Origin: a plasmid
Length of the DNA: 64,000 nucleotides
Assembly (NCBI RefSeq): GCF_054482595.1
Contig: NZ_JBTHVH010000001.1
Direction: 5' to 3' (one strand)
The stretch's first letter is position 1. Each line of letters begins with the position of its first letter. Of the stretch, positions 16,805-30,800 are shown piece after piece. The notes under the pieces were generated by a model that saw only the letters and a program-made list of their open reading frames with translations, searched no databases and was not told where the DNA came from. The translations under genes and the position numbers were made by a program.

Positions 16805-18288
16805 TGGCCAGAAGTTGCGTAACGGATCCACGTTGGCGCGAGCTGGTGGCGCTATATCGTTATGACTGGATTGCTGCCGCTGATGTTTTGTTCGGCAAAA
16901 CACCTACCTGGCAGCAGGATCTGATTATTGAGTCTGTGCAGGAACAGGGTAGCAAGACATCTGTTTCGTCTGGTCACGGTACCGGGAAATCAGACATGAC
17001 TTCTATCATGATCATGTTGTTCATAATCATGTATCCCGGTGCCCGCGCCATTATCGTTGCGAACAAAATTCAGCAGGTAATGACCGGTATATTCAAGTAC
17101 ATCAAGATAAACTGGGCTACTGCCACCAGCCGTTTTCCATGGCTTGCTGATTATTTTGTTCTGACAGAAACCGCTTTCTATGAGGTTACTGGTAAAGGTG
17201 TATGGACTGTAGTACCGAAGGGCTTTCGTCTGGGAAGTGAAGAAGCTCTCGCCGGTGAACACGCAGATCATCTTCTGTATATTATCGATGAAGCCTCCGG
17301 TGTCAGTGATAGAGCTTTCGGTATCATCACCGGTGCTCTTACCGGACAGGATAACCGCATCTTATTACTGTCACAGCCTACACGCCCAAGCGGCTATTTC
17401 TACGATACTCATCATAAACTGGCCAAGCGTCCTGGTAACCCTGATGGCGTTTATACGGCGATCACGCTTAACAGTGAGGAATCACCGCTGGTAACGCCAG
17501 CATTTATCAAAATGAAGCTGGCGGAGTACGGCGGGCGCGATAACCCTATGTACATGATTAAGGTACGCGGCCTATTCCCTAAATCACAGGATGGCTTCCT
17601 TCTTGGACGTGATGAGGTTGAACGTGCAACGCGGCGGAAAGTCAAGATTGCCAAAGGATGGGGCTGGCTTGCATGTGTGGACGTTGCTGGTGGTACGGGA
17701 AGGGATAAGTCCGTTATCAATATCATGATGGTGTCCGGCCAGAGAAATAAACGCCGTGTAATCAACTATCGAATGCTGGAATACACAGACGTTACAGAAA
17801 CGCAGCTTGCCGCCAAAATTTTCGCAGAATGTAATCCTGAGCGATTCCCAAATATCACCATAGCGATAGACGGCGATGGGCTGGGTAAAGCAACAGCGGA
17901 TCTGATGTACGAGTATTATGGTATTACCGTACAGCGTATACGCTGGGGTAAAAAGATGCATAGCCGTGAAGATAAGAGCCTGTACTTTGATAAACGTGCT
18001 TATGCCAACGTTCAAGCCGCAGAGGCCGTAAAATCTGGTCGTATGAGACTGGATAAGGGTAATGAAACTATTGAGGAAGCGTCGAAAATCCCTGTAGGGA
18101 TTAACTCCGCAGGTCAATGGAAGGTGATGAGTAAGGAGGATATGAAGAAAAAACTCAACCTGCACTCACCAGACCATTGGGATACATATTGTTTCGCTAT
18201 GCTGGCGGATTATGTTCCCCAGGACGAAGTGCTTAGCGTCGAAGACGAAGCGCAGGTTGATGAAGCTCTGGCATGGCTTAATGAATGA
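16804..18288 (+). CDS. pacB: terminase large subunit
   Basis: 494 aa; ATG overlaps pacA stop. Confidence 0.9.
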
Positions 18289-18291
18289 ACA

Positions 18292-18308
18292 TTTGCTCTA
18301 ATAAATTG
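18292..18308 (+). promoter_or_regulatory. C1 operator-like site upstream of icd/ant module
   Basis: TTTGCTCTAATAAATTG, 15/17 to consensus. Confidence 0.6.
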
Positions 18309-18438
18309 TGTTTTTTAACTACCGATGTTACATTGAACCTGACCTCTTGCGCCTTGAGGCATTTTCGGTTTATGCTTATCAGGCACCTCAGTAAAACGGG
18401 TGCCGGGATTGGCCTCCCGCTTAAGTCTAAGGCGATAC

Positions 18439-18462
18439 AGACGCCGCTCGCGTCTTTTTTTT
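18439..18462 (+). terminator. terminator-like hairpin inside the ant leader
   Basis: agacgc cgctc gcgtct followed by T7 run. Confidence 0.45.
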
Positions 18463-18479
18463 GTATCGGCGTACACGCA

Positions 18480-18600
18480 CACCTCTACAATGGTGGGCTG
18501 TATGGGGCTACCTTCGGGTAGGCTGGTTACCTTGGACGCCAGTAAGGCCAACTCCGTACAGTCCACCGCCAGCAAGATTGGTCTCTTCTGCGGTGGTTAC
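18480..18600 (+). ncRNA. candidate c4-like antisense RNA region (boundaries not resolved)
   Basis: UUCG-loop hairpin ggctaccttcgggtaggc; CCTTGGACG (18530..18538) near-complementary to GTCTAAGG at the icd SD. Confidence 0.25.
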
Positions 18601-18627
18601 ATACCAACGTCTAAGGAGGCTGCCAAT

Positions 18628-18849
18628 ATGGCTACTATCCCTACCCCAACTCATCCTGAATTTATCTGGCGCTTTTACTCCTGCCAAAAACGTCACTATC
18701 ACTTCGTTATTGCACCGACAGAAGATGAGGCACGTTCTCAGCTTCCTGACGCCCCATGTATTTTCTCTGCCCGTTTTTCCACTGATTCACGCAATTCTCT
18801 CAGTTACTGGTGCCTCCCTGTTAACGCTTCTGCTCAGGAGGGACTATGA
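18628..18849 (+). CDS. icd: Icd-like small protein (73 aa)
   Basis: ORF whose stop overlaps ant start (ATGA); AGGAGG SD. Confidence 0.55.
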   Translation: MATIPTPTHPEFIWRFYSCQKRHYHFVIAPTEDEARSQLPDAPCIFSARFSTDSRNSLSYWCLPVNASAQEGL

Positions 18850-19964
18850 GAACATCGTTAGTTACCCGTGAAGAGATGATCGAGGCAATTGAACAGCACA
18901 CTGCCTGTATCAGTACCAGGGATATACCAGGCGTTATTGCCAACTACTTCATGATCACCAAACAACTTTACCGGAGAAAGGACAAGAACGCGGTTCACCG
19001 TATCCTGTTGTCTGATATCCGCGAATACCTGCTCGAACAGGGTCATCTGAATTACGCAACCGTCGCAGCCGAATCACGCAAGGAGGCACACAGAATGAAA
19101 GCAACTAACGTTAAATCAGAAAAAATTCATGCACCTTCAGTTCAGGAATCGGAGCTGGTGGTTGTTCAGAATCAGTCTGATGAAATTCCCGTTCTGGAAT
19201 GGCAGGGAGTGCGTGTAGTGACAACCGAGACTCTTGCTAGAGGGTATGGGACAGAAACAATCCGTATTCGCCAAAATCATCATGAGAACAAAGTACGCTT
19301 TGTTGAAGGGAAGCACTTTTTCAAAGTTGAAGGAGAATCATTGCGCGAGTTGAAGCACAGAGTAGCTTTAAACTACTCTGTAAAAATTGCTCGCAATGTT
19401 CGCTCACTCACCCTCTGGACAGAACGCGGCGCAGCCCGCCACGCTAAAATGCTCGAAACCGATCAGGCATGGGCATTCTTTGAAAAACTGGAAGACAGCT
19501 ACTTCCGACAAAAAGAACAGCAACCGATCGCAATCCCCCAAACATTACCAGAAGCCCTACGCCTGGCTGCCGAACTGGCTGAACAAAAGCAGCTTCTGGA
19601 ACAGAAAGCCCACCAGCTAAATCAGCAGCTGGTGGCCGCCGCTCCTAAGGTCGATTTTGCCGACCGGGTATCAGTAGCTAAAGGGATCCTGATTGGGAAT
19701 TTTGCAAAGGTTGTTGGACTTAAGCAAAACGCGCTGTTTGTCTGGTTACGGGAGAACGGCATCCTGATAGCGTCCGGTGGACGTAAAAATGTGCCGTTCC
19801 AGCAGTACATCAACGCGGGGTATTTCACGGTGAAAGAAGTGGTGCTGGATGATGAAGATGGCTACCAGATACGGTTGACGCCTCAATTAACGGGTAAAGG
19901 CCAGCAGTGGTTGACGCGTAAACTGCTCGATGCTGGCTTGTTAAAACCGGTGGCGGCTGAATAA
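18846..19964 (+). CDS. ant: antirepressor (central Rha/ORF6N-like domain, C-terminal KilAC-like domain)
   Basis: 372 aa; C-terminal FADRVSVAKGILIGNFAKVVGLKQNALF resembles KilAC/Ant C-terminal domain. Confidence 0.75.
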   Translation: MRTSLVTREEMIEAIEQHTACISTRDIPGVIANYFMITKQLYRRKDKNAVHRILLSDIREYLLEQGHLNYATVAAESRKEAHRMKATNVKSEKIHAPSVQESELVVVQNQSDEIPVLEWQGVRVVTTETLARGYGTETIRIRQNHHENKVRFVEGKHFFKVEGESLRELKHRVALNYSVKIARNVRSLTLWTERGAARHAKMLETDQAWAFFEKLEDSYFRQKEQQPIAIPQTLPEALRLAAELAEQKQLLEQKAHQLNQQLVAAAPKVDFADRVSVAKGILIGNFAKVVGLKQNALFVWLRENGILIASGGRKNVPFQQYINAGYFTVKEVVLDDEDGYQIRLTPQLTGKGQQWLTRKLLDAGLLKPVAAE

Positions 19965-19968
19965 TGGA

Positions 19969-19990
19969 AGAATGCCCGGTTGATGCCGGG
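19969..19990. terminator. palindromic hairpin between convergent ant and c1
   Basis: atgcccgg ttgatg ccgggcat perfect inverted repeat. Confidence 0.45.
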
Positions 19991-19996
19991 CATAAT

Positions 19997-20848
19997 TTAT
20001 TGCGCGCTTTCGGGGTTGTCGTTTACTGGCTGCCCCTTCTTGGTTTTACGGCTGCGCGTAACTGATGCGGCTGACTTAACCTTTTTCTCTTCGCGAGTGA
20101 TGGCAATTTGTTTTTTTACATTTTCAATATCTGCCAGGCGATATATTTTTGCTTGCGGCCAGCGGTCGCAGATGATCGGTTCTATGGAGTCATAAAGGCT
20201 AAATTTTGCTTTTTCGAATTCACCGTTGATGATAATTCCATCACGGAGAGTTTCATCGCAGATAAACACGCCACACAGTGGCACATGGTAACTAACTGAT
20301 TTACCATCATTGTAGTTAGGGCTACTGGAAATGTAGTGGACGCGCAGCATTGTTTCGCTAAAGCCGTGTACGCGCATACGGAATTTTTCATCCTCCGGGT
20401 ACTGCCTCATTAGCTCTTTTGTTGCTTCCAGGTTCTCTATGTATTTCGCACTGTGCTCATTGATCCCCGCGCTTTTTTGGATGCGAATGTCCTTATCAAT
20501 CAGATGAATAATGCGGCCAGCGGTCATGTTGACGCTGTTCACAGCTTCTGTCTGATAAGTTGTAACCTTGCGCACACCGCGAAGGATGTTAGGCACTGGA
20601 TATAAAATAGTCTTTGGGATATTGAGGTCTGGGTACTGTTCCAGTTCCCGCGCCATTAAAGTCCATTTATCAATTTCAGCCTGAATGCTGTCTGTTTCTT
20701 TGAACGGTAGAACGACAACCGGGCGTACAGGACGACCGTCGCTGGCGGCATCAACGTGTTGGGCGCGTGCAACAGCTTTTTTTAGAAAGAGATCCCTGAA
20801 GCTGACGAACTCCTGGTACAGTTGTTCGCCGTAGACATAATTTATCAT
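19997..20848 (-). CDS. c1: C1 master repressor
   Basis: 283 aa MINYVYGEQLYQEFVSFRDLF... matches recalled P1 C1. Confidence 0.9.
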   Translation of the reverse strand: MINYVYGEQLYQEFVSFRDLFLKKAVARAQHVDAASDGRPVRPVVVLPFKETDSIQAEIDKWTLMARELEQYPDLNIPKTILYPVPNILRGVRKVTTYQTEAVNSVNMTAGRIIHLIDKDIRIQKSAGINEHSAKYIENLEATKELMRQYPEDEKFRMRVHGFSETMLRVHYISSSPNYNDGKSVSYHVPLCGVFICDETLRDGIIINGEFEKAKFSLYDSIEPIICDRWPQAKIYRLADIENVKKQIAITREEKKVKSAASVTRSRKTKKGQPVNDNPESAQ

Positions 20849-20942
20849 TGATCCTCCTCCAGAATTGACATGGTCAATAACGCCCGGCTGAGAAAACCGG
20901 TCATTACTGACCTATATTATAGAGGGATCAAACAAAAATAAT

Positions 20943-20959
20943 AGATTTATTAGTGCATT
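20943..20959 (-). promoter_or_regulatory. weak C1 operator-like site
   Basis: agatttattagtgcatt, about 13/17 to reverse-complemented consensus. Confidence 0.35.
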
Positions 20960-21168
20960 TATTGTGAGTCTAACTGGTTAGTTGTCATGAGATATTCGAT
21001 TGTGTCAGTGAGGTCATCCAGGTCGTCTTGGGTGATGCGGTACTCCTGATTGGATATCTTTGAGTAGTGTTCAGCAATGGCGCGGGCAGCGTCGGTTTCG
21101 GCAGGGTCTACAGATAAAGCGTTAGAGCAATGTCTAACGTCGTCGATGGTTGGTTGAATGAAAGCCAT
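20959..21168 (-). CDS. coi: C1 inactivator
   Basis: 69-aa ORF directly upstream of c1 on same strand. Confidence 0.8.
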   Translation of the reverse strand: MAFIQPTIDDVRHCSNALSVDPAETDAARAIAEHYSKISNQEYRITQDDLDDLTDTIEYLMTTNQLDSQ

Positions 21169-21406
21169 AATTATGCCTCACTGTATTGACAACACAGAGC
21201 CCGAAGCTCTGACCTACTGTTTCACCCATGATCCATGCTGGGGTAATCTAACAACATTGCGCTGTGTGTAAGATGAGCAATGCATAGCTGTAATGCCGTT
21301 GTATAAGGTTTCCCTGTTTGCTCATTTCCTTCTGAGCCGCTCTACAACGCTGAAGACACATTAAATAGTGAATCCAAAGTCGTATTACGTAACGGCGGCA
21401 AAACTA

Positions 21407-21423
21407 TAATTTATTAGAGCAAT
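21407..21423 (-). promoter_or_regulatory. C1 operator (immC cluster)
   Basis: taatttattagagcaat, near-perfect reverse-complement of consensus. Confidence 0.6.
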
Positions 21424-21489
21424 TGTCAAACAACTATGAAAAACAATCCAGTTTTTAGCTGGTGGAGTGGGATTTTTCTCTCAAAATTT

Positions 21490-21506
21490 ATTGCTCTAAT
21501 AATTCT
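21490..21506 (+). promoter_or_regulatory. C1 operator (immC cluster)
   Basis: ATTGCTCTAATAATTCT. Confidence 0.65.
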
Positions 21507-21549
21507 TGATTTTTATGCGCAGCTGGACGTAAACTCCTCTTCGGATCTA

Positions 21550-21583
21550 ATAACTTCGTATAGCATACATTATACGAAGTTAT
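21550..21583 (+). other. loxP: loxP recombination site
   Basis: Exact ATAACTTCGTATA-GCATACAT-TATACGAAGTTAT. Confidence 0.98.
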
Positions 21584-21772
21584 ATTAAGGGTTATTGAAT
21601 ATGATCAATTTACCTGTAAATCCATACAGTTCAATACTGTAGCAGGTCAAATAGTGACCACTTGATCATTTGATCAAGGTTGCGCTACGTAAAATCTGTG
21701 AAAAATTGGCGGTGTTAGTCCTACAGATTTCGCGTAGCGCACTTAGCACCACCAATCAATCAGAGGTGAAAA

Positions 21773-21994
21773 ATGGGATATTCAACTGCTAAAGTGTCCA
21801 CTCATCTTGAGCTTGAGAAAAACCGTGGTTACTGGCGGGCAAAAGGGTTTGATCGTGATAGTTGCCAACTGTCATTATCGCGCGGTGAAGAGAAAATAGA
21901 ACGCACGCGCGGTCGCTGGCGTTTCTATGACGAGAACCATAAACAGGTAAAGGCAGAGCCGATCCTGTACACTTTACTTAAAACCATTATCTGA
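21773..21994 (+). CDS. hypothetical small ORF between loxP and cre (73 aa)
   Basis: GAGGTG SD upstream of ATG; may be chance ORF in cre promoter region. Confidence 0.3.
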   Translation: MGYSTAKVSTHLELEKNRGYWRAKGFDRDSCQLSLSRGEEKIERTRGRWRFYDENHKQVKAEPILYTLLKTII

Positions 21995-22001
21995 GTGTTA
22001 A

Positions 22002-23033
22002 ATGTCCAATTTACTGACCGTACACCAAAATTTGCCTGCATTACCGGTCGATGCAACGAGTGATGAGGTTCGCAAGAACCTGATGGACATGTTCAGGGAT
22101 CGCCAGGCGTTTTCTGAGCATACCTGGAAAATGCTTCTGTCCGTTTGCCGGTCGTGGGCGGCATGGTGCAAGTTGAATAACCGGAAATGGTTTCCCGCAG
22201 AACCTGAAGATGTTCGCGATTATCTTCTATATCTTCAGGCGCGCGGTCTGGCAGTAAAAACTATCCAGCAACATTTGGGCCAGCTAAACATGCTTCATCG
22301 TCGGTCCGGGCTGCCACGACCAAGTGACAGCAATGCTGTTTCACTGGTTATGCGGCGGATCCGAAAAGAAAACGTTGATGCCGGTGAACGTGCAAAACAG
22401 GCTCTAGCGTTCGAACGCACTGATTTCGACCAGGTTCGTTCACTCATGGAAAATAGCGATCGCTGCCAGGATATACGTAATCTGGCATTTCTGGGGATTG
22501 CTTATAACACCCTGTTACGTATAGCCGAAATTGCCAGGATCAGGGTTAAAGATATCTCACGTACTGACGGTGGGAGAATGTTAATCCATATTGGCAGAAC
22601 GAAAACGCTGGTTAGCACCGCAGGTGTAGAGAAGGCACTTAGCCTGGGGGTAACTAAACTAGTCGAGCGATGGATTTCTGTCTCTGGTGTGGCTGATGAT
22701 CCGAATAACTACTTGTTTTGCCGTGTCAGAAAAAATGGCGTAGCTGCGCCATCTGCCACCAGCCAGCTATCAACTCGCGCCCTGGAAGGGATTTTTGAAG
22801 CAACTCATCGATTGATTTACGGCGCTAAGGATGACTCTGGTCAGAGATACCTGGCCTGGTCTGGACACAGTGCCCGTGTCGGAGCCGCGCGAGATATGGC
22901 CCGCGCCGGAGTTTCAATACCGGAGATCATGCAAGCTGGTGGCTGGACCAACGTAAATATTGTCATGAACTATATCCGTAACCTGGATAGTGAAACAGGG
23001 GCAATGGTGCGCCTGCTGGAAGATGGCGATTAG
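22002..23033 (+). CDS. cre: Cre tyrosine recombinase
   Basis: 343-aa protein recognised as P1 Cre across its length. Confidence 0.98.
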   Translation: MSNLLTVHQNLPALPVDATSDEVRKNLMDMFRDRQAFSEHTWKMLLSVCRSWAAWCKLNNRKWFPAEPEDVRDYLLYLQARGLAVKTIQQHLGQLNMLHRRSGLPRPSDSNAVSLVMRRIRKENVDAGERAKQALAFERTDFDQVRSLMENSDRCQDIRNLAFLGIAYNTLLRIAEIARIRVKDISRTDGGRMLIHIGRTKTLVSTAGVEKALSLGVTKLVERWISVSGVADDPNNYLFCRVRKNGVAAPSATSQLSTRALEGIFEATHRLIYGAKDDSGQRYLAWSGHSARVGAARDMARAGVSIPEIMQAGGWTNVNIVMNYIRNLDSETGAMVRLLEDGD

Positions 23034-23050
23034 CCATTAACGCGTAAATG

Positions 23051-23067
23051 ATTGCTCTAATTCTTTG
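23051..23067 (+). promoter_or_regulatory. C1 operator-like site downstream of cre
   Basis: ATTGCTCTAATTCTTTG. Confidence 0.55.
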
Positions 23068-23083
23068 ATATTTATGGCGACAT

Positions 23084-23395
23084 ATGAGAAAGAATTTCAA
23101 CATCGACGGAAAATATGTAGTGCTGTCAGTGAGCACTAATATTCAGTCGCCAGCCGTCATTGTCACTGTAAAGCTGAGCGATAGAATGCCTGATATTGAC
23201 TCAATATCCGTTGCGTTCCCTGTCAGAAGTATGCGTAGTGCTGAACATTTCGTGATGAATGCCACCGAGGAAGAAGCACGGCGCGGTTTTGCTAAAGTGA
23301 TGTCTGAGTTTGGCGAATTTTTGGGGCACGTTGACAAAGCCCTCTCAATCAGTTCAGCAAGATCCAAAGCATTAACAGCTTCCATGATGAAATAA
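23084..23395 (+). CDS. hypothetical protein (103 aa), cre-adjacent
   Basis: ORF preceded by operator-like site. Confidence 0.5.
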   Translation: MRKNFNIDGKYVVLSVSTNIQSPAVIVTVKLSDRMPDIDSISVAFPVRSMRSAEHFVMNATEEEARRGFAKVMSEFGEFLGHVDKALSISSARSKALTASMMK

Positions 23396-23396
23396 A

Positions 23397-23420
23397 AAAA
23401 GCCTGGCAAGGAGCCAGGCT
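23397..23420 (-). terminator. terminator-like hairpin (minus-strand U-tract)
   Basis: gcctggc aagga gccaggc with A-run on plus strand (T-run on minus). Confidence 0.4.
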
Positions 23421-23526
23421 GCACAAAAGAGCGGGTTTGTATTCCGCATCCAATCAATCAAGAAGGAGTATAGCACACAGGTACTGACGTGAAAAAATAT
23501 GATTCGCGATAAACAAAATACCTATC

Positions 23527-23543
23527 ATTGCTCTAATTGAGCC
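23527..23543 (+). promoter_or_regulatory. C1 operator-like site
   Basis: ATTGCTCTAATTGAGCC. Confidence 0.45.
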
Positions 23544-23623
23544 GCAGTTTTTGTCAACTACGAAGACGTGGCCATTACCTACTCCTTTGAAATCATTGGC
23601 GACCATTAGGCCGCCTTTTTTAA

Positions 23624-24676
23624 TCATTCAGCCGCCACCGGTTTTAACAAGCCAGCATCAAGTAGCTTGCGAGTCAACCACTGCTGGCCTTTACCCGTTA
23701 ATTGGGGCGTCAGCCGTATCTGGTAGCCATTTTCATCATCCAGCACCACTTCTTTCACCGTGAAATACCCGGCGTTGATGTACTGTTGGCGCGGTACGTT
23801 TTTGCGCGCACCAAAAGCCATGAGAATGCCGTTCTGGCGCAACCATGAGAAAAGGGCGTTTTGCTTCAGTCCAACGACCTTTGCAAAGTTCCCGATCAGG
23901 ATTCCATTAGCCACTGATACCCGAACGGCAAAATCGACTTTAGGGGCTGCGGCCACCAGCTGCTGATTTAGCTGGTGGGCTTTCTGTTCCAGAAGTTGCT
24001 TTTGTTCAGCCAGCTCGGCAGCCAGGCGCAGAGCTTCGGGGAGTGTTTGGGGGAGCACTGGAGAAGCAGTGTTAGCCTGCTGCAATTCCTCCAGTTTGTC
24101 GATCAGCGAACGGCGGACCGCTTTTGACTCGCGCGCGGCAACTCGCAGGGCTTGTTTGTAGGTCATGGAGATAGTTTCAGATGTTGTGTTGTTTAATTTT
24201 TGCACTACGAAAATTTCGTAGTACTCACCATCCAGTTCATCCTTAACTCTGGCAATAAAATCATTATTGCGAACTGGTTTTTCGCTGCATAATTTCCGCG
24301 CTTCATTGACCATCTTCAACAATGTTTGGCTGTCTATTGTGTCGCCGCTGTTGGGGATAACATTCACGGCTGGTGCAGTTGTTCCCAAAGACTTCGTAAC
24401 TACAGCGTCTGGTTTGCTTGCTTTCATTCTGTGTGCCTCCTTGCGTGTTTCGGCTGCGACGGTTGCGTAATTCAGATGCCCCTGTTCGAGCAGGTATTCA
24501 CGGATATCGGTTAGCAGAATGCGGTGAACCGCGTGTTTGTCCTTTCTCCGGTAAAGTTGTTTGGTGATCATGAAGTAGTTGGCAATAACGCCTGGTATAT
24601 CCCTGGTACTGATACAGGCAGTGTGCTGTTCAATTGCCTCGATCATCTCTTCACGGGTGACTAATGACGTTCTCAT
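23624..24676 (-). CDS. antirepressor paralog with alternative central domain
   Basis: 350 aa; first ~85 aa and last ~110 aa nearly identical to 18846..19964 product, middle unrelated. Confidence 0.7.
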   Translation of the reverse strand: MRTSLVTREEMIEAIEQHTACISTRDIPGVIANYFMITKQLYRRKDKHAVHRILLTDIREYLLEQGHLNYATVAAETRKEAHRMKASKPDAVVTKSLGTTAPAVNVIPNSGDTIDSQTLLKMVNEARKLCSEKPVRNNDFIARVKDELDGEYYEIFVVQKLNNTTSETISMTYKQALRVAARESKAVRRSLIDKLEELQQANTASPVLPQTLPEALRLAAELAEQKQLLEQKAHQLNQQLVAAAPKVDFAVRVSVANGILIGNFAKVVGLKQNALFSWLRQNGILMAFGARKNVPRQQYINAGYFTVKEVVLDDENGYQIRLTPQLTGKGQQWLTRKLLDAGLLKPVAAE

Positions 24677-24894
24677 AGTCCCTCCTGAGCAGAAGCGTTA
24701 ACAGGGAGGCACCAGTAACTGAGAGAATTGCGCAAATCGGTAGAAAAGCGGGCAGAGAAAATACAGGGAGCATCCGGAAGCTGAGAACGTGCCTCATCTT
24801 CTGTTGGTGCGATAACGAAGTGATAGTGACGTTTCTGGCAGGAGTAAAAGCGCCAGATAAATTCAGGGCGTGCGCAAGGATTGGCATTAACCAT
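24673..24894 (-). CDS. Icd-like small protein, second copy (73 aa)
   Basis: Same architecture as 18628..18849; differs in first ~10 residues. Confidence 0.55.
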   Translation of the reverse strand: MVNANPCARPEFIWRFYSCQKRHYHFVIAPTEDEARSQLPDAPCIFSARFSTDLRNSLSYWCLPVNASAQEGL

Positions 24895-24899
24895 AGTTA

Positions 24900-25205
24900 C
24901 GGCCTCATGTACAGGTTTAACAACCTGCTATCCGCTGCTAAACGGGTGGCAGGACGTGACGGGGTTAGCAGACTGGCGTACATGAAACCAGCAGGCCGAA
25001 GCCTCCCCATCACGCCCCACCATAATTCGGGCGTAACGTGGTTTTACGGACACAAAAATACCGCAATATCGGATATCTGCGGTTGTCCGCATGTACATTC
25101 AGGCTGCTAAACCCGGTCGCAGAATTTGCTACGACGGCGGAACTATAAGCCTGAATGACAGGAAGATCAATAGTCTGGCGTTCAATGGTAGTATTTTTGC
25201 TCCAA
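24900..25205 (-). ncRNA. candidate c4-like antisense RNA region of second module (boundaries not resolved)
   Basis: Leader between operator and icd-like ORF; UUCG-loop hairpin gaggcttcggcct; sequence unrelated to forward-copy leader. Confidence 0.2.
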
Positions 25206-25211
25206 TAAATC

Positions 25212-25228
25212 AAATCTATTAGAGCAAT
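25212..25228 (-). promoter_or_regulatory. C1 operator-like site upstream of second icd/ant module
   Basis: aaatctattagagcaat. Confidence 0.6.
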
Positions 25229-25370
25229 AAATTATTATCCCAAGCTTTACAGTGCGCTGTAAAATTCAAACCTTCGGGTCAGTGGCGGAATCGTATTTCA
25301 CTCACGGAATGAGTATTATTAGTTTTGTCATACATAGCTAGGTAATGAATCACTTGAAGGAACTACGAAC

Positions 25371-26171
25371 ATGTCCGTGACCATTAGCGTCCTGCTGGAA
25401 AACAGACTTAAGCTTGGAGTTAAAAACTCGCTGCGTGCTAAAGCAGGACTTAGTCTGTTGATACAGGATGAAAACGATTCAATCCTGTTTGATACTGGGC
25501 CTGATGATAGCTTCATGTATAACGCAGGTTTAATGGGGGTCGATTTGACAAAACTGACCGCAGTTGTACTTTCCCATGGTCACTATGACCACTGCGGAGG
25601 TGTTCCGTGGATACCAGACACATGCAGGATAATATGCCATCCTATGGTGTCGGATGAGCGCTATTCGGCAATCAGGTTTTTAGGCTATACCGCCAGAATA
25701 AAAAAATTATCATTACATAATGATTTTTCACGTTTCCGCATGGAATACAGCAACACACCATTGCATATCAGTGAGCGTTTTATGTGGTCAGGAGAGATCC
25801 CTGTTGCCAGGCCACGCGCTTACGGTGTTATCGGGTGTAAGAATACGAAAGAAGATTACGTAAAAGATGAGGGGGTTTTAATTTATAAATCAGACTATGG
25901 GTTGATCATTTTTATCGGTTGTGGTCATTGCGGGGTAATTGATATTGTGCGCCACTGCCAAAATATAACCGGGATAAATCATATTCATGCAATTTTTGGT
26001 GGTCTTCATCTGCGCTGTGCGTCCCCTCTTATGCTCTGGAAGGTGAGACAGTTCTTACGCCTTCATAAACCAGATAAGATAATGGGGTGTCATTGTACTG
26101 GCAAATGGGGACGCTTGTGGTTACCGGAATCAACCTCTCCGGCAACAGGTGATGTTTATGTTCTTGGATAG
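25371..26171 (+). CDS. metallo-beta-lactamase-fold hydrolase (266 aa)
   Basis: HxHxDH motif SHGHYDHCGG preceded by ILFDTGPD; lower GC than backbone. Confidence 0.75.
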   Translation: MSVTISVLLENRLKLGVKNSLRAKAGLSLLIQDENDSILFDTGPDDSFMYNAGLMGVDLTKLTAVVLSHGHYDHCGGVPWIPDTCRIICHPMVSDERYSAIRFLGYTARIKKLSLHNDFSRFRMEYSNTPLHISERFMWSGEIPVARPRAYGVIGCKNTKEDYVKDEGVLIYKSDYGLIIFIGCGHCGVIDIVRHCQNITGINHIHAIFGGLHLRCASPLMLWKVRQFLRLHKPDKIMGCHCTGKWGRLWLPESTSPATGDVYVLG

Positions 26172-26488
26172 ACATGGTGCTGTTTCTGTTCATGTCGATT
26201 GTGTGGTTGGGGGCAAGAAAGAATTCACCTTGCTGAATAAGTCAGAGATGGAGTTGCTGGCTGACGCCTATGAGATGGCAAACGTCATGCACTAATAAAT
26301 ATATTATTTTTAATGATAAATGATTGACAACTGACAAGTGACTTCAGCCAGAATCATCACACGCCCGGTACGGATGGATCCCTTTTCAAATATTCCATGG
26401 ACGGCACAGTCTGAGTACCGGGCGCTACCTTCAGTTGTATGTATTGCTAAGCCGCCGCTGGTGGCTTTTCTTTTTTGTAGGGGGCGCT

Positions 26489-27130
26489 ATGGATAAGAAA
26501 ATATGCGTTGTTTCGATGAGCGTCGGCAAACCGGCGTCAATGACTGCTGCATGGATCAATAACGAGCTGATAATGGCTGAGCGGACCAGCTACCCTGAAC
26601 GCCGCCGCGATATGGAACTCCAGCTGCTGCGCGAATTGCGAGAAAAAGAGGAAAAGGGGTTTATCGTGCTGGTGGAAGAGGAAAACAGCTTTATTACTGG
26701 TCGAGTTGGCCAGCGTGTAAGGTTGCGCGATCCCTTCATGAACGGCAGGCCGGTACTAATTGAGGCAATGCAGATTTATAAGGAGTTGGAACGCCAGAAA
26801 GCAATCAAGTTACCGCGCAAGGAATCCGGCAAATACATCCTCCACCAAAGCATCTTCGATTCCGAACACGATAAAAAAGGCGATGAATTTTTCAACATCA
26901 ACTGGAGCGAAATAACGACAGAGCATGTTCTGACGTTACTATGTTGCTTTGCGACGGAATACAACAACGTTGCCAGCGCCGACTACATCAGGGCAATGGC
27001 TGGAGAAGTTGAGGCACGCCAGGAACCATCGTTACTAAGCCCTCTGATTAACATAATTCGCAGAACCCAAACACTGGCGCAAAAACAAGTACCACAAGGG
27101 GAATTGACGGGTAAAGGTAATTATCTCTGA
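26489..27130 (+). CDS. hypothetical protein (213 aa)
   Basis: ATG with AGGGGG SD inside ORF-track ORF 26435..27130; no recognisable motif. Confidence 0.55.
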   Translation: MDKKICVVSMSVGKPASMTAAWINNELIMAERTSYPERRRDMELQLLRELREKEEKGFIVLVEEENSFITGRVGQRVRLRDPFMNGRPVLIEAMQIYKELERQKAIKLPRKESGKYILHQSIFDSEHDKKGDEFFNINWSEITTEHVLTLLCCFATEYNNVASADYIRAMAGEVEARQEPSLLSPLINIIRRTQTLAQKQVPQGELTGKGNYL

Positions 27131-27169
27131 AAGATGCCCGGCGATAGACCGGGCAAAAGGGCGGAAAGT

Positions 27170-27418
27170 TTAATCAGCATTCAGGAGCAATGCGTTATCT
27201 ATGATGATCTGCTCCCATTCTTCGAATGCCCGATCGCGGACGCCCTGGGGAACACTGTTAGTTTTGAAATCGACGACCGTACGCCATTTCCCGTCCGGAC
27301 GGTACATGCGCAGAGCTTTACTTCCCCCTTCCCTGCGCACCTCAACGTTATGCTTGTCAGCAAACTCTTGTAATGCTCGTAACGTCCCATGCTTTACTGT
27401 GTAGTATCGCTTTTTCAA
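27170..27418 (-). CDS. lxc: Lxc/Bof-like C1 co-repressor modulator
   Basis: 82-aa ORF downstream of darB-ulx on same strand; assignment by size and synteny. Confidence 0.5.
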   Translation of the reverse strand: MKKRYYTVKHGTLRALQEFADKHNVEVRREGGSKALRMYRPDGKWRTVVDFKTNSVPQGVRDRAFEEWEQIIIDNALLLNAD

Positions 27419-27855
27419 GTTTTCTCTCCAGCCTGTGCCAAGGCTTCAACTTCCAAATCATAAGACTCAAACTCATAGTCCTGGTCGTCAACTTCTTCAG
27501 GCACTGGCAGTAAATGCCAGGCTGAGTATATCTGACCATTATCAAAACGCTCCTGGCTGTAGAGCGTAGCGGCTATGAGTGTTAGCGCCGGGCGGTCATA
27601 ACGGTAAATTTTGCGAACGTCACGGTCAACGAGACGACCGAAATTACCATAACCGCGCTCCAGTAATAATTTTTTAATTTCCGGCCAGTATGGACCATAG
27701 CTGCGGTACAGGCGGGGATTTTTCAGTAATCGCCCGCGTAGCCCTGACAGGAAGAAATCAACGTATTCGTCTTCTGTCTTTCCTAACAACGCCGTACGCA
27801 GTACCGCCTCAAGATATGTTTTATTCGGTTTTATTGTATCAGATAGTGTGGCCAT
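27415..27855 (-). CDS. ulx: Ulx-like protein (darB operon)
   Basis: 146-aa ORF between darB and lxc; synteny-based. Confidence 0.45.
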   Translation of the reverse strand: MATLSDTIKPNKTYLEAVLRTALLGKTEDEYVDFFLSGLRGRLLKNPRLYRSYGPYWPEIKKLLLERGYGNFGRLVDRDVRKIYRYDRPALTLIAATLYSQERFDNGQIYSAWHLLPVPEEVDDQDYEFESYDLEVEALAQAGEKT

Positions 27856-27888: not shown

Positions 27889-30800
27889 TTATGCGTATTG
27901 TTGGATGACGGCCAGAACGTCCGCCACGTTGTGTTTTGTCTCGATAATCCACCAGTTACCCGGGAAATCGCTGTTCTTTGCCTTCGCTGGCAGCCAGCGA
28001 GCGCCGAATTTCGCCTTGATTGCGTCTTTCGCACGGAAAAGAATGCCTTTCATGCCGGACGCCTCCTGAAGCCCAAATACCTCGCCAGCGGCGAATTTTG
28101 GTGCGTACATCATCTTCAGGTCGGCGGTGGATACGCGATAATTCAGACCAAGAGACTGAGCTATGCTGGTGGCATCACCCTGTATTGATGATAACTCTTC
28201 TTGTTTCTCGTTTCTGGCGGCAATTTCTTCCTCCGTGATGTTGCCAAGGGCCAGGTTTATCCGATCAGCGTCGGCCTGTTTCTCTTCATCGGTGCGCCCG
28301 GCAAGAACCGTGTTAATTCTCTGCAATATCTCCACATGATTCTTGCGCATGCTGAGCAATTCCGGCGTAACCTCGTTAAGATCCACCAGCCCAAGGATGG
28401 CAAGGTCGGAAAACATTGATACCAGGTTGTAGGTCATGCGATAGCTGAGTTGGCCATAGGCTGATGGCAACTGCACCGCATCCATTTTATAGGCATCCAT
28501 AAATTTAGAGCCGTCGTTTACGACATCCGCAATTGCCGGTGTGATTTTCCCTGTGGTGGCGGCCTCCCTGATTGCTGTTACCCACGATTGAGTCAGTGCG
28601 GCGACTGCATGATTCAGATTGGCTTCCCGTTCTGCTGCGATGCGCGCGCTTGCTGCGTCCATTGCCTGCTTGATCTCGGCTTTATTGCTGTAAATGCCAA
28701 TGGTGCCAAACTGTGCTGTGGTGATCTCATAATCTGACGCCCGGAACTCATGGGTACCGAAAATGGCATTGGTGACCTCAAGTTCAGAATCCCCGTTACG
28801 AGTAGCCCCCTGGCTTGTTTTCTCCGGCATTCTGGCGATCGCATCCGCTATTTTCTCCTGAATTGCTTCAGGGGATAGCGTATCTCCATATGACGCGATT
28901 ACATCGCCATAATTGGAGCCAAACAGTTCAGTCAGGAATACTTCTGCCAAACGGACCTGGCGGTTATTCCCTTCAGACATCATACCAAGCACCCATTTTG
29001 CAATTGACGACTTCAGCGCGCCGTCACGGCGATCCGGGTAAACCGCATGCTTCAGTGGGTCCGTATAGGTACCAACAAAATCAATGCTATAGCCTGACTC
29101 TGTAGTCTGAACGCCGTATGAGTCAGTGATTTTGATCATGCCGCGCTGCTGGAAACGGTAGAAATCGTCACAGGAAATGATGTCGTTAATCCCGGCGATG
29201 GAGACGCCACCACTGATTTTCTGCATAACAGCATCTTCATCGGGAGTTACATCCACCTGTTTATCCAGCGTCTTCACATCCCAGTTACCCGATTTGGTGC
29301 CTCTTAAGGTAAAGATGATCTCCACGTCTGCGCGCTGGCTGTCGAAGTCCAGCGACTTAATGCGAACGATATCACCGGCACAATCGTAGTATTGGCCTAC
29401 ACGCCATGAGCGATCGCCGATAACAAGGAACTCATTCGCATGGTTAACCAGATCAGGATCAACATCCAGAATGCCTTTATTTATTGCATCCTCCACCAGC
29501 GGGCGCAGGCGTTTGATATCCGTCGCGGCCTTCTGAGTACGGTTCAATAATTTCTCATAGCGGGAGATGGCCTGAGAGATATTAGCCTTGCGCTGAATGG
29601 CGCTTTTCAACGACGCGCGATACTGTGCTAACAACATACGGTCTGTGTGATGGACACTCCCCCAGCGGGCCTTCCAGTCTGCGTTATCCGCTGCCTTGGC
29701 CATTGCCGCCTGTTTGAATTTAGCTACCTCGGCGGTGGTCTTTTCAAGTTCCGCTTTGCTTCGCTCTAATTCAGCGGTAAGTACCTCCACATCCTCGCCA
29801 GCTGCGTGCTGCGCCTTGATGTAGTTCTGAAGGTCGATAGTAGCCTGTTCTTTCTGGCGAGCGCGTTTCGCAGCTTTCGCCTTATCCATTTGAACCTGCA
29901 TCATTGCCAGACGTTCGCCGTCATCCTTCGCGGTATACATCTGCATTTCGATCATGTCATTGGCGTCGGCGTTCTCCATTTCTGACTTATCTGAACGGAG
30001 GATATCGGAGATCCAGCCTGCTTTACGCTTCAGCGTCTTCAGTCGGTATTCATCGAAAGACCCCTTGCCGCAGTAGTAGTGAACGCGAACGCTTGCACGG
30101 TTGGAACCAACTCGGGCACCGCGACCGTTACGCTGTGCGATACTGGCTGGTGTCCACGGCAACGTCAGGTGGTGGATATCCGTCGTTCCTCGATGCAGGT
30201 TGATACCCACCTCTGCCTTTTTGTTGCAGATGATGATCGGAGTCCGGCCCTCCTGGAAGTCGGCTGCAATCTTTTCCAGACCGCCCAACGACATTTCATT
30301 TTGCTGCGCGATATAGGCGTCATACAGAGCCATTTGCTCGTTGTATTTCGCTATCTGTGCATCTGTTGGTTCATCCGGTAGCTCTTTCGGCGGTTTAACC
30401 GCTTTCAGTTTCTTACCGGTTTTACCTGCCTCGGCAACCGTCTGAGCATTCAGGATCCCCACCTTTGAAGGTTCAAGGTTTAGAGCATTGCAGATAATGC
30501 GCTTGAGCTTCTGGTGCTGCGTTTTTTCATCGGTGAAGATGATTTGCTTACCTTCCGGGAAAAACTCCTTCAGCGTGGCGATCAGCTTCGCGTATTTCGG
30601 CGTAACGGGGTGAGTTACGGTCTGTTCGTCAATGCCAAACCTGGCCAGGCGCTTATTCACTTCCTGCTCGAACGCTTCCGGAACCTGCAACTGAATAAAC
30701 TCGCCCTTATCTATCAGGGAGTATTGCGATTGCTGCGTGATTGAATCATCACTGTCGTCGTCTTCGCTGGTGGCTTGTTTAGGCAAACTGTCCGCCAGCT

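Follow-up and report, generated by a model that had tools for sequence, protein, structure and literature searches.

A block-mosaic antirepressor gene in an accessory immI-type module of a P1-like phage-plasmid

We analysed a 64,000-nucleotide stretch of plasmid DNA, referred to here as the window. The 350-amino-acid open reading frame at positions 23624–24676 on the minus strand is probably the ant1/ant2 gene of an accessory immI-type module in a P1-like phage-plasmid, with a mosaic structure built by independently recombining blocks. Relative to a second, 372-amino-acid ant gene on the plus strand, the two ends of the protein are shared and the centre is replaced, in a sharp block swap far beyond chance that is not uniform divergence. 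The swap in itself is clear but ordinary cut-and-paste evolution among phage regulators: the mixing and matching of N- and C-terminal modules is a hallmark of the antirepressor class, and such shuffling is textbook knowledge. What makes the finding valuable is its setting: in some P1-like phage-plasmids several complete immI cassettes occur together, gated by antisense RNAs with mutually non-pairing C4 codes, and related elements assemble these cassettes from independently recombining blocks. A domain-shuffling framework for such proteins was reportedly set out by Iyer, Koonin and Aravind in Genome Biology in 2002.

Results

Two immI-type modules are inverted around c1-lox-cre

The gene order cre, c1, pacA/B, lxc, darB is that of P1 and identifies the window as part of a P1-like phage-plasmid; the region is 99.2% identical to plasmid pYZMc17-1_100k. 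It contains two accessory immI-type modules, A (372-amino-acid ant, plus strand) and B (350-amino-acid ant, minus strand), which are inverted around c1-lox-cre with approximately 4 kb between the two extra ant copies. Module A is inserted between pacB and c1. Module B lies on the opposite strand in the variable cra-mat region, and not at the canonical P1 position between sim and kilA/repL. The sister plasmid carries a third icd-ant pair at the canonical immI position, and a third, canonical module is probably located just beyond the end of the window. Each module has the parts of the complete P1 immI set: a C1-operator-like site, promoters, a1/b1, C4 RNA, a2/b2, icd and ant. Both ant genes are ant1/ant2 homologues that match phrog_63, and both icd genes match phrog_1426 (E approximately 1e-46).

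Module B begins with a predicted C1-operator-like site, ATTGCTCTAATAGATTT (25212–25228, minus strand), which deviates from the P1 operator consensus ATTGCTCTAATAAATTT at a single position, is located as Op51/Oc4 of P1, and adjoins a promoter-like site, TTTACA-18-GATAAT (25263–25234). A second promoter-like site downstream, TTGATC-17-TATAGT (25170–25142), aligns with P1c4/P51b of P1 (TTGACC...TATAGT). Both sites of this pair (25142–25263, minus strand) were picked up by a consensus scan for sigma-70 promoters and are putative in function. The leader with the a1/b1 decoy targets (25096–25148, minus strand) matched Rfam RF03163 c4-a1b1 with 55.5 bits against a gathering score of 46.7; a1 is TTAGCAG (25104–25110) and b1 is GTACATGC (25089–25096), both perfectly complementary to the loops of the module's own C4. 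The C4 antisense RNA (24942–25027, minus strand; Rfam RF01695, 71.7 bits against a gathering score of 45) presents loops a′, CTGCTAA (24965–24971), and b′, TCATGTAC (24978–24985). Directly upstream of the icd start (24905–24941, minus strand) are a2, TTAGCAG (24935–24941), and b2, GTACATGA (24905–24912), which are perfect Watson-Crick complements of the module's own a′ and b′ loops. These targets are unmatched by the C4 of module A or of P1, and P7-type C4 pairs with them at a only.

The icd homologue of module B (24673–24894, minus strand; 73 amino acids) matched phrog_1426 with E 4.8e-46 and has an Icd-like annotation in pYZMc17-1_100k; its stop codon overlaps the ant start (ATGA). This overlap is also present in P1 and P7, and ant is predicted to be translationally coupled to icd. 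The ant1 homologue itself matched phrog_63 ('anti-repressor Ant') with E 2.8e-112 and is colinear with Ant1 of P1 and P7, and its region aligned with the immI regions of P1, P7 and RCS47 at approximately 80% in megablast. It can be divided into three blocks. The N block (codons 1–87, 24416–24676, minus strand) holds the Ant1-only extension and an internal Ant2 start, AAGGAGG-N8-ATG, with its ATG at codon 84 (24425–24427). The Shine-Dalgarno sequence and the ATG at codon 84 are kept in P1, P7 and both window ant genes, and P1 ant2 is annotated from the same codon. The centre cassette (codons 88–207, 24056–24415, minus strand) encodes a head of the P1/P7 type, apparently divergent Rha-like and winged-helix-like, behind a variable linker. 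The C block (codons 208–350, 23624–24055, minus strand) encodes a coiled linker and an ANT/KilAC domain (Pfam PF03374, residues 238–339, E 9.6e-28). A pattern scan placed a terminator-like hairpin with a T-run at 23400–23420, between the convergent ant and cra genes.

Module B is thus the same as the P1/P7 immI region (c4-icd-ant1/ant2) in the order of its parts, C1 operator, two promoters, a1/b1, RF01695 C4, a2/b2, the 73-amino-acid Icd overlapping the ant start, and the internal Ant2 start at codon 84. The 350-amino-acid protein likewise agrees with P1/P7 Ant1 in colinearity, centre type and KilAC C-terminus. It differs from P1 in its N-extension, a distinct allele that is 64% identical, and in seven additional residues in the linker that are absent in both P1 and P7. 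The module differs from P1/P7 immI in lying inverted in the cra-mat region and not between sim and kilA, in being one of up to three modules per element, and in its new C4 code, which combines b′ TCATGTAC with a P7-type a′.

That module B is a decaying, non-functional immI remnant is most improbable. The open reading frame is of full length, and the module's regulatory elements are all undamaged and complementary to one another. In addition, the Ant2 start is kept, and the locus is 93–99% conserved across dozens of plasmids. On the other side, P1 itself is without both accessory modules, and the accessory ant is truncated or frameshifted in three surveyed relatives (L016, L018 and L047) and annotated likewise in ETEC1730 and pO111_2. 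Some hosts, at least, can therefore do without the accessory copies.

In module A, all on the plus strand, the predicted C1-operator-like site TTTGCTCTAATAAATTG (18292–18308) has two mismatches to the consensus, and no promoter passed the simple consensus scan. The leader RNA (18383–18460) is of the IsrK type with an intrinsic terminator (Rfam RF01394 isrK, 60 bits against a gathering score of 50); it holds a1, TTGGCCT (18409–18415), b1, GTCTAAGG (18425–18432), and a terminator-like site at 18439–18455. The C4 antisense RNA (18486–18573; RF01695, 75.9 bits) has loops b′, CCTTGGAC (18530–18537), and a′, AGGCCAA (18545–18551). Targets a2, TTGGTCT, and b2, GTCTAAGG, lie at 18578–18616, with b2 overlapping the icd Shine-Dalgarno sequence AAGGAGG; each pairs with the module's own C4 loops with one G-U pair, and with no other code. 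The icd homologue (18628–18849; 73 amino acids; phrog_1426, E 1.2e-45) is also annotated as such. It is followed by the 372-amino-acid ant1 homologue (18846–19964; phrog_63, E 1.2e-131), in which Pfam identified ORF6N at residues 116–202 (E 4.6e-19) and ANT at residues 260–361 (E 3.7e-30). Its blocks are N (18846–19106), ORF6N centre (19107–19532) and C (19533–19964), and its Ant2 ATG is at 19095–19097.

Module A resembles the isrK-orf45-anrP region of Salmonella Gifsy-1, an RNA-gated, translationally coupled antirepressor system (Hershko-Shalev et al. 2016, PMC4825925), in having an IsrK-type leader with its own terminator followed by a short coupled open reading frame and an antirepressor gene. 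The Gifsy-1 IsrK activates translation (PMC4825925); the IsrK-like RNA of module A may do likewise, or may serve only as carrier of the a1/b1 decoys. Module A differs in having a bona fide C4 RNA and a 73-amino-acid icd instead of orf45, and module B differs in that its leader is of the P1 type, c4-a1b1, and not isrK.

The two ant genes share their ends and differ in the centre

BLASTP aligned the 350- and 372-amino-acid proteins with E = 5e-159; the ends were near-identical, and the alignment of the middle was gapped and essentially random. Identity was 83/87 over residues 1–87 and 133/143 over the last 143 residues. At the nucleotide level, the two modules are connected by two inverted-repeat arms. 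Arm I1 (18655–19104 against 24418–24867; 450 nucleotides, 94%) covers icd codons 10–73 and ant codons 1–86, and arm I2 (19534–19975 against 23613–24054; 442 nucleotides, 87%) covers the ant C block. In a profile with a 30-nucleotide sliding window, identity dropped from approximately 93% to background (8–16 of 30) at about ant codon 87, and was restored at codon 230 of the 372-amino-acid gene and codon 208 of the 350-amino-acid gene. Both proteins have an ANT/KilAC match in Pfam (E 1e-27 and 4e-30). ORF6N was matched by the 372-amino-acid protein only; there was no Pfam match, ORF6N included, in the centre of the 350-amino-acid protein.

A sequence-only reading of the 350-amino-acid gene had proposed modular shuffling, with a common first ~85 residues and unrelated centres, of which one carried a Rha/ORF6N-like block and the other a different block. 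The alignment, sliding-window and HMM results agree with it on each of these points: the junctions are sharp and fall at domain boundaries, and the centres are unalignable. Sharing of the C-terminus was also real, but its extent had been put at ~110 residues and is ~143, because the coiled linker from PQTLPEALRL belongs to the block. The proposal that regulatory parts had been kept holds for the shared 5′ block, in which the 3′ part of icd is followed by the Ant1-only N-extension with the Ant2 ribosome site; it does not hold for the C4 RNA and its targets, which differ between the modules. The choice of the 350-amino-acid gene as the swapped copy was mistaken. Its centre is the canonical P1/P7 Ant1 centre, colinear with P1, P7 and the canonical Ant of the sister plasmid, and the non-canonical ORF6N is held by the 372-amino-acid partner. 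Within the P1 Ant family, the flagged gene is unremarkable.

The same reading had called the two genes paralogues. They are related, but they did not arise by simple duplication. A recent duplication within the genome, in which one module was copied in inverted orientation and its centre replaced later, would account for N blocks (94% at the nucleotide level) and C blocks (87%) that are far closer to each other than to P1, and for the fact that both genes have the N-extension allele of the window and the seven-residue linker insert. It is nevertheless very unlikely. Upstream of icd codon 10 the modules are only ~50% identical, their leaders belong to different families (isrK and c4-a1b1) and their C4 sequences differ. 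Each module also occurs without the other in related plasmids (for example L007, L008 and L085), and many elements have the pacB|c1 module only. Finally, the unequal divergence of the arms (94% and 87%) fits separate exchange or gene-conversion events.

C4 codes and blocks assort independently among relatives

The C4 codes of the two modules are mutually non-pairing, the loops of each matching only its own four targets. To place these codes among relatives, we read C4 loops with an anchor-based parse built on an alignment of 10 diverse C4 sequences. The 81 modules parsed in this way contained 16 codes, made from six a′ and 10 b′ alleles. The cis a2 and b2 targets were complementary to the module's own C4 in 80/81 modules and all four targets in 78/81, and the matrix of cross-pairing between C4 RNAs and targets was nearly diagonal.

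The survey covered 84 related ant genes, collected with peptide patterns taken from the query and not free of bias. Four features assorted independently in these genes: the C4 code (16 types), the allele of the N block, the type of centre and the allele of the C block. The centres therefore act like cassettes that can be exchanged between recombination arms which are themselves conserved. In 78 gene pairs the N blocks were at least 95% and the C blocks at least 90% identical, with centres of different classes. The pacB|c1 site holds ORF6N or P1-type centres, and a 99%-identical copy of the window ORF6N centre was found in a module on the cre-cra-mat side in one relative (L076).

A chimeric junction query, in which the ORF6N-type centre and C block are joined to the cra side, was matched in 39 plasmids. 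The possibility that the inverted ant copies flip c1-lox-cre was considered, and no evidence for it was found: L085, one of these 39 plasmids, has the normal order with a different allele at the site, and all checked survey loci with both pacB and cre are in the P1 orientation. The cra-side order of pO111_2 (L086) is as in L085; its locus ends before c1/pacB and is uninformative on inversion.

The two centres show no detectable profile homology

Alignment of the two centres with hhalign gave a probability below 1%, with shallow and deeper centre profiles alike. Their sole resemblance is in the terminal helix (RVAARESKAVRR..DKLEE against RGAARHAKML..EKLED, E 0.08). Both centres are matched by phrog_1726, and we considered whether they are remote homologues, but in view of the hhalign result homology is not demonstrated. 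NCBIfam had no match for either Ant protein, PDB sequence searches returned nothing significant, and a single-sequence AlphaFold model of the full 350-amino-acid protein was unusable (pLDDT 42).

The P1-type centre resembles winged-helix domains of the Rha type in a divergent form. Pfam Phage_pRha (PF09669) was not matched by the query itself; across 59 diverse members of the centre family, 23 reached E ≤ 0.1 and a single one E ≤ 0.001 (best 3.7e-4), and AFDB neighbours of the centre include proteins annotated 'Rha family transcriptional regulator'. On this assignment, the swap would be one between analogous head domains. Variation in P1-type centres peaks at residues 151–170, with an entropy of 1.3–1.5 bits compared with approximately 0 in the flanking helices. 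This hypervariable segment corresponds to the predicted β2-β3 hairpin of a winged-helix-like fold, a hairpin that is typically a recognition surface.

Domain-sized homologue searches, covering proteins up to ~1.75 times the query length, showed that lambdoid antirepressors also carry both centre types as their N-terminal heads. At the nucleotide level, antirepressor genes of Stx2a phages are 90% identical to the P1-type centre, which forms the N-domain of proteins of ~230–260 amino acids with at least three different C-terminal domains. The ORF6N centre of the window is 62–70% identical to the N-domain of 223–227-amino-acid Ant proteins of E. coli and Shigella. In prophage proteins these head domains pair with several C-terminal domains (KilAC, P22AR_C and others). 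Lambdoid antirepressors (ORF6N with P22AR_C; Rha-like with KilAC or another domain) therefore share their head domains with the window Ants. They differ from the P1 family, in which the head is internal, behind an Ant1-only extension of 83–87 amino acids translationally coupled to icd, and the whole gene is under C4 antisense control.

These observations bear on what the swap does. One reading is that the centre is the target-recognition head, and that a change from a Rha-like to an ORF6N head redirects Ant to another repressor, of a lambdoid prophage or a variant C1, with control and KilAC unchanged. We regard this as possible but doubtful. It is favoured by the occurrence of both centre types as heads of stand-alone antirepressor-like proteins with varied C-terminal domains in lambdoid and other prophages, by the 90% nucleotide identity of the P1-type centre to the Stx2a-phage genes, and by the concentration of variation on the predicted hairpin. 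Against it, C1 is 99–100% conserved whatever combination of centres an element carries, and the centres therefore do not track the element's own repressor. Phages that share the P1-type centre are also expected to have repressors unrelated to C1, which argues against strict specificity there. Retargeting is compatible with the recombining-block explanation, to which it would be an added functional claim.

Alternatively, the centres could be equivalent heads, for example generic DNA-binding or oligomerisation domains, in which case the swap would be a by-product of the frequent homologous recombination among antirepressor genes of phages and would leave function unchanged. This, too, we put forward only tentatively and consider rather unlikely. 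Both centres are flanked by the same conserved arms, are common among enterobacterial prophages, and are found among antirepressor N-domains predicted to be winged-helix-like. Each of the two types is also seen at both accessory sites and downstream of both C4 families. On the other hand, the centres have no detectable profile homology, the sharply local hypervariability of P1-type centres looks selected, and the canonical site always had a P1-type centre within the survey sample.

Discussion

In our preferred explanation, the mosaic would have arisen because ant consists of independently recombining blocks. Block i would join the C4 code and its targets to the 5′ end of icd; block ii would span the 3′ part of icd, the N-extension found only in Ant1 and the start of Ant2; block iii would be the central head domain, and block iv the coiled linker and KilAC. 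The conserved blocks ii and iv may act as homology arms, and the centre cassette would be drawn from a pool of antirepressor N-domains, Rha-like P1-type and ORF6N included, that is shared with lambdoid prophages.

For the regulation of the window genes and their antagonism of C1, P1 and P7 serve as the models; an Ant1/Ant2/C1 complex and the C4 targets a1/b1/a2/b2 are part of the P1 annotation. By analogy, C1 and processed C4 RNA would keep icd-ant silent in the lysogen. Pairing of C4 with a2/b2 would block translation of icd, and ant would consequently not be expressed. Where no matching C4 is present, Ant1/Ant2 would be made and the C1 repressor inactivated. The most likely consequence of stacking non-pairing codes would be to widen both the range of incoming relatives that are silenced and the range of resident lysogens that are overcome.

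A bolder, unlikely proposal is that the modules serve a combinatorial, lock-and-key form of superinfection warfare. Up to three stacked modules, orthogonal two-loop codes (at least 16, with a′ and b′ reassorting) and exchangeable heads would be combined, and Ants with ORF6N and Rha-like heads would hit different repressors, including those of unrelated lambdoid prophages. If this were true, a P1-like element entering the cell could induce competitors from different phage families and eliminate them, and incoming relatives sharing any code would be silenced.

P1-like elements commonly carry resistance genes in E. coli, and the modules offer a testable account of heteroimmunity patterns and co-residence among P1-like plasmids. 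They also provide a natural library of orthogonal two-site antisense RNA/target pairs, and a defined set of chimeras that differ in the head domain but not in the arms, with which the part of Ant that recognises the repressor could be identified.

In the literature searched, extra ant/icd copies are mentioned only in passing, and nothing was found on C4 code diversity in phage-plasmids. Passages of one report place ant between pacB and c1 'as in RCS47', and P1 icd-ant1/2 homologues in RD-1, a variable region of pSvP1 at res-mod (Venturini et al. 2019, PMC6906374); passages of another describe a second antisense RNA-icd (c4-icd) region of D6-like plasmids in pYU39_89 (PMC6799933). The block mosaic, the Ant2 boundary, orthogonal C4 codes and combinatorial diversity were not found described in these passages or elsewhere in the literature searched. 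The insertion sites given in the passages of PMC6906374 are the same as those of the accessory modules in the window.

Structure of the two ant genes

The sequence-only reading had described two ORFs with shared ends and unrelated middles, one of 350 aa at 23624-24676 (-) and one of 372 aa at 18846-19964 (+), and both were found as claimed. The two proteins match with E = 5e-159 (BLASTP), and are identical at 83 of the first 87 residues and at 133 of the last 143. In the middle, 120 residues of the 350-aa protein lie opposite 142 of its partner, in a gapped alignment that carries no meaning. The DNA contains two pairs of inverted-repeat arms, one of 450 nt (18655-19104 versus 24418-24867, 94% identity) and one of 442 nt (19534-19975 versus 23613-24054, 87% identity). 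In a 30-nt sliding profile, identity drops step-like from ~93% to background and then recovers in the same manner. Pairwise alignment and profile therefore bear out a sharp block swap rather than uniform divergence.

Both window proteins were aligned with P1 Ant1, P7 Ant1 and the canonical Ant of a sister plasmid. The 350-aa gene had been flagged as the bearer of the swapped centre, but its product has the architecture and centre of the canonical P1/P7 type. The foreign centre sits in the 372-aa partner and is clearly an ORF6N domain (Pfam E 4.6e-19). The two window genes have in common an N-block allele (MRTSLV...) with only 64% identity to the P1/P7 allele (MKKPLV...), and their coiled linkers carry a shared insert of 7 residues. 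In both window genes, P1 and P7, codon 84 is the ATG of a conserved strong AAGGAGG-N8-ATG, and this ATG coincides exactly with the annotated P1 ant2 start. The centre swap begins three codons past the Ant2 start, so that the block shared at the N-terminus corresponds to the Ant1-only extension together with the initiation region for Ant2 translation. The Ant2 products predicted from the two genes would be 'head + linker + KilAC' proteins differing in the head.

Organisation of the immI-type modules

The region of the 350-aa gene matches the immI regions of P1, P7, RCS47 and SJ46 across icd-ant1/ant2 at ~80% (megablast). We refer to the surroundings of the 372-aa gene, between pacB and c1, as module A, and to those of the 350-aa gene, in the cra-mat region, as module B. 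Rfam detected C4 antisense RNAs at 18486-18573 (+, 75.9 bits) in module A and at 24942-25027 (-, 71.7 bits) in module B. The former is preceded by an isrK-type RNA (RF01394, 60 bits, 18383-18460, +), and the latter by a c4-a1b1 leader (25096-25148, -). The upstream 73-aa ORFs of both modules are Icd (phrog_1426, about E 1e-46), both large ORFs match phrog_63, 'anti-repressor Ant', and in both modules the icd stop overlaps the ant ATG. C1-operator-like sites were found upstream of icd-ant in module A (18292-18308) and, with one mismatch to the consensus, in module B (25212-25228), which also has two promoter-like sites laid out like P2c4/P1c4 of P1. The C4 RNAs, leaders, Icd, Ant, operator-like sites and Ant2 start add up to two complete immI-type modules within the window, mutually inverted on either side of c1-lox-cre. 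These account for the only two ant genes and the only two C4 RNAs in the window. A third icd-ant pair is present at the canonical sim-kilA position in the 99%-identical sister plasmid; by synteny, this position would lie near 67 kb, just beyond the window. The 350-aa gene agrees with the P1 immI ant gene in everything that sequence can test, except for its location.

The isrK-type leader of module A has a 3′ end resembling an intrinsic terminator (hairpin with T-run, 18439-18455), also bears the decoy targets a1 and b1 of the C4 that follows, and may combine IsrK-type and C4-type control. This leader is where module A resembles the Gifsy-1 isrK-orf45-anrP locus (PMC4825925). Some relatives have an isrK-type leader at the canonical immI site (L029, L032, L038). 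In module B, a 57-aa ORF (23454-23627, -) lies directly 3′ of the ant gene, ahead of a terminator-like hairpin (23400-23420).

C4 codes of the modules

The proposal that the swap kept the regulatory parts holds only in part: upstream of icd codon 10 modules A and B are only about 50% identical, and their C4 RNAs and targets differ. The earlier interpretation is supported in part, above all for the block mosaic with differing centres. The C4 loops a′ and b′ read CTGTCAA and TCACTAAC in P1, CTGCTAA and TCACAATC in P7 and in the canonical module of the sister plasmid, CTGCTAA and TCATGTAC in module B, and AGGCCAA and CCTTGGAC in module A. The four targets of each module (a1 and b1 in the leader, a2 and b2 at the icd ribosome site) complement that module's own loops, with one G-U pair within each C4-target pairing in module A, and the b2 target lies on or adjoining the icd Shine-Dalgarno. 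Module A pairs with none of the other codes compared, and module B has the a site alone in common with the P7 type.

We extended the comparison to 80 loci from viral contigs (L005-L084), which were drawn by peptide patterns of the query and are not an unbiased sample; with the window these gave 84 ant genes. In the 81 C4 RNAs parsed, six a′ and ten b′ alleles combine into 16 distinct (a′,b′) codes. These alleles reassort, for example P1-a′ with P7-b′ and vice versa. Both cis a2 and b2 complement their own C4 in 80 of the 81 modules, all four targets do so in 78, and the cross-pairing matrix is almost diagonal. The C4 RNAs of P1-like elements form a combinatorial code, and so offer a naturally occurring library of antisense regulators that act at two sites and are orthogonal to one another. 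We regard this multi-module code system as a more interesting lead than the 350-aa gene itself.

The anatomy alone was observed here; the regulatory steps are taken from P1 annotation and from knowledge of P1 and P7, whose immI regulation is reportedly the subject of classical work by Citron, Biere, Heinrich, Riedel and Schuster. The operator-proximal promoter would be repressed by C1. C4, processed from the leader, would pair with a2/b2 and stop icd translation and, via coupling and polarity, ant expression. Without a matching C4, Ant1/Ant2 would be produced and C1 inactivated. Stacking non-pairing codes should allow a resident to silence the ant of more kinds of incoming relatives, and should increase the number of residents whose immunity the element breaks.

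The two head domains

N-terminal domains 62-70% identical to the ORF6N centre occur in E. coli/Shigella prophage Ant proteins of 223-227 aa with an ORF6N + P22AR_C architecture. The P1-type centre of the 350-aa protein had no Pfam match. Its family comprises 589 representative clusters in a library of 1.84 billion proteins, mostly as the N-terminal domain of ~230-260-aa proteins with several different C-terminal domains, and a 264-nt stretch is 90% identical to Stx2a-phage antirepressor genes. When 59 diverse family members were scanned singly, 23 matched Phage_pRha weakly (best E 3.7e-4). A confident AlphaFold model built on the family alignment (pLDDT 85.3) has the predicted order beta1-H1-H2-beta2-beta3-H3-H4, and its AFDB neighbours are annotated Ant, KilA or Rha-family. 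Profile-profile comparison of the two centres gave no relation (probability below 1%), and one PHROG profile spans both. We read them as different members of a broad set of antirepressor head domains, with homology not demonstrable.

Among 53 distinct P1-type Ant proteins, variability of the centre is packed into residues 151-170 (1.3-1.5 bits, versus ~0 in the nearly invariant flanking helices). These residues (window about 24167-24226) form the beta2-beta3 hairpin of the head in the AF2 model, and occur in at least four unrelated-looking versions, such as YYEIFVVQKLNNTTSETIS, FYTKSAKSHGTRAGRSFEVIT, GYEIFVTPMDKKKGGADQVVIV and DGYTKSATVPPGGGTPMVVIT. Two features speak for a recognition role of the heads, through which a centre swap might change the protein target: lambdoid antirepressors use both heads too, and the predicted hairpin is hypervariable. 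C1 is 99-100% identical across the centre combinations surveyed, which argues against co-evolution of the centre with the element's own repressor. In the boldest reading, of low probability, stacked and orthogonally gated antirepressors would have heads aimed at different repressors.

Distribution and rearrangement of ant modules

Among the survey loci the canonical site has the P1 N-allele and a P1-type centre without exception. At the pacB|c1 site the window N-allele occurs with ORF6N centres of three subtypes or with a P1-type centre (L009), and some elements lack this module entirely (L007, L008, L085). The cra-side site has a P1-type centre in the window and L005-L008; in L076 the cre-cra-mat side has a second accessory module, whose ORF6N centre is 99% identical to that of the window. 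There were 78 gene pairs with at least 95% identity in the N block and at least 90% in the C block, yet with different centre classes. We explain such mosaics by homologous recombination within the conserved blocks either side of the centre cassette. Proteins with Bro-N, KilA-N, ORF6N, Rha and KilAC domains have long been known to shuffle them, as reportedly set out by Iyer et al. in 2002.

An ORF6N-type centre is joined to the cra side in 39 plasmids. The inverted repeats around c1-lox-cre (18655-19975 versus 23613-24867) mean that homologous recombination could invert the immC-cre segment, but the one inspected locus with flanks reaching c1 and pacB (L085) has normal gene order, which points to allelic cassette exchange instead; pO111_2 (L086) stops short of c1/pacB. 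None of the loci and plasmids inspected showed an inverted isomer.

The ant paralogs seem to be rearrangement hot spots. In some relatives a second accessory module, pointing the same way as the pacB|c1 module, lies between mat and lxc (L076 14183-15109; L079 7001-8110). The order pacB-ant-lxc-darB without c1, cre and cra in L081 (4939-9989) looks like a deletion product between direct ant repeats, or an assembly collapse, and in L032 pacB is joined to an ant-kilA context. P1 KilA, encoded directly after ant (L002 2297-3001), has a KilAC block in common with Ant (about 65% aa), giving up to four KilAC-domain paralogs per P1-like element; its identity to some accessory Ant proteins is 48-59% from the end of the centre through the C block.

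Venturini et al. 2019 (PMC6906374) noted extra ant copies between pacB and c1 in pTZ20_1P and RCS47, and found the variable res-mod region of pSvP1 to hold homologues of icd-ant1/2; a D6-like plasmid has a second c4-icd region (PMC6799933). The literature searched contained no block map tied to the Ant2 start, no per-module orthogonal C4 codes and no combinatorial code diversity.

The element and its cargo

The gene order in the window (cre, c1, pacA/pacB, lxc, darB) is that of phage P1, with pacA/pacB at 15611-18288 (+), the C1 repressor gene at 19997-20848 (-), Cre recombinase at 22002-23033 (+) and DarB (2255 aa) at 27889-34656 (-), and the element is, by its sequence, evidently a P1-like phage-plasmid. 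Over region 16800-27500 the window shares 99.2% identity with E. coli plasmid pYZMc17-1_100k (NZ_CP123256.1). In all, 871 plasmid records match this region, most of them from non-mobilizable Escherichia plasmids, and 51 plasmids cover 80% or more of its 10.7 kb. The exact 7-kb double-module arrangement is present in 31 of 5426 complete E. coli genomes.

The cra-lxc interval, which holds res-mod in P1, is a cargo hot spot. Besides the accessory immI module, an MBL-fold hydrolase gene (25371-26171) and mat lie there in the window, within 25371-27130. The sister plasmid has an extra SIR2-family gene between mat and lxc (L001 11882-13186) that is missing from the window, and other relatives have type III R-M, GNAT, DUF2971 or PIN genes in this interval.
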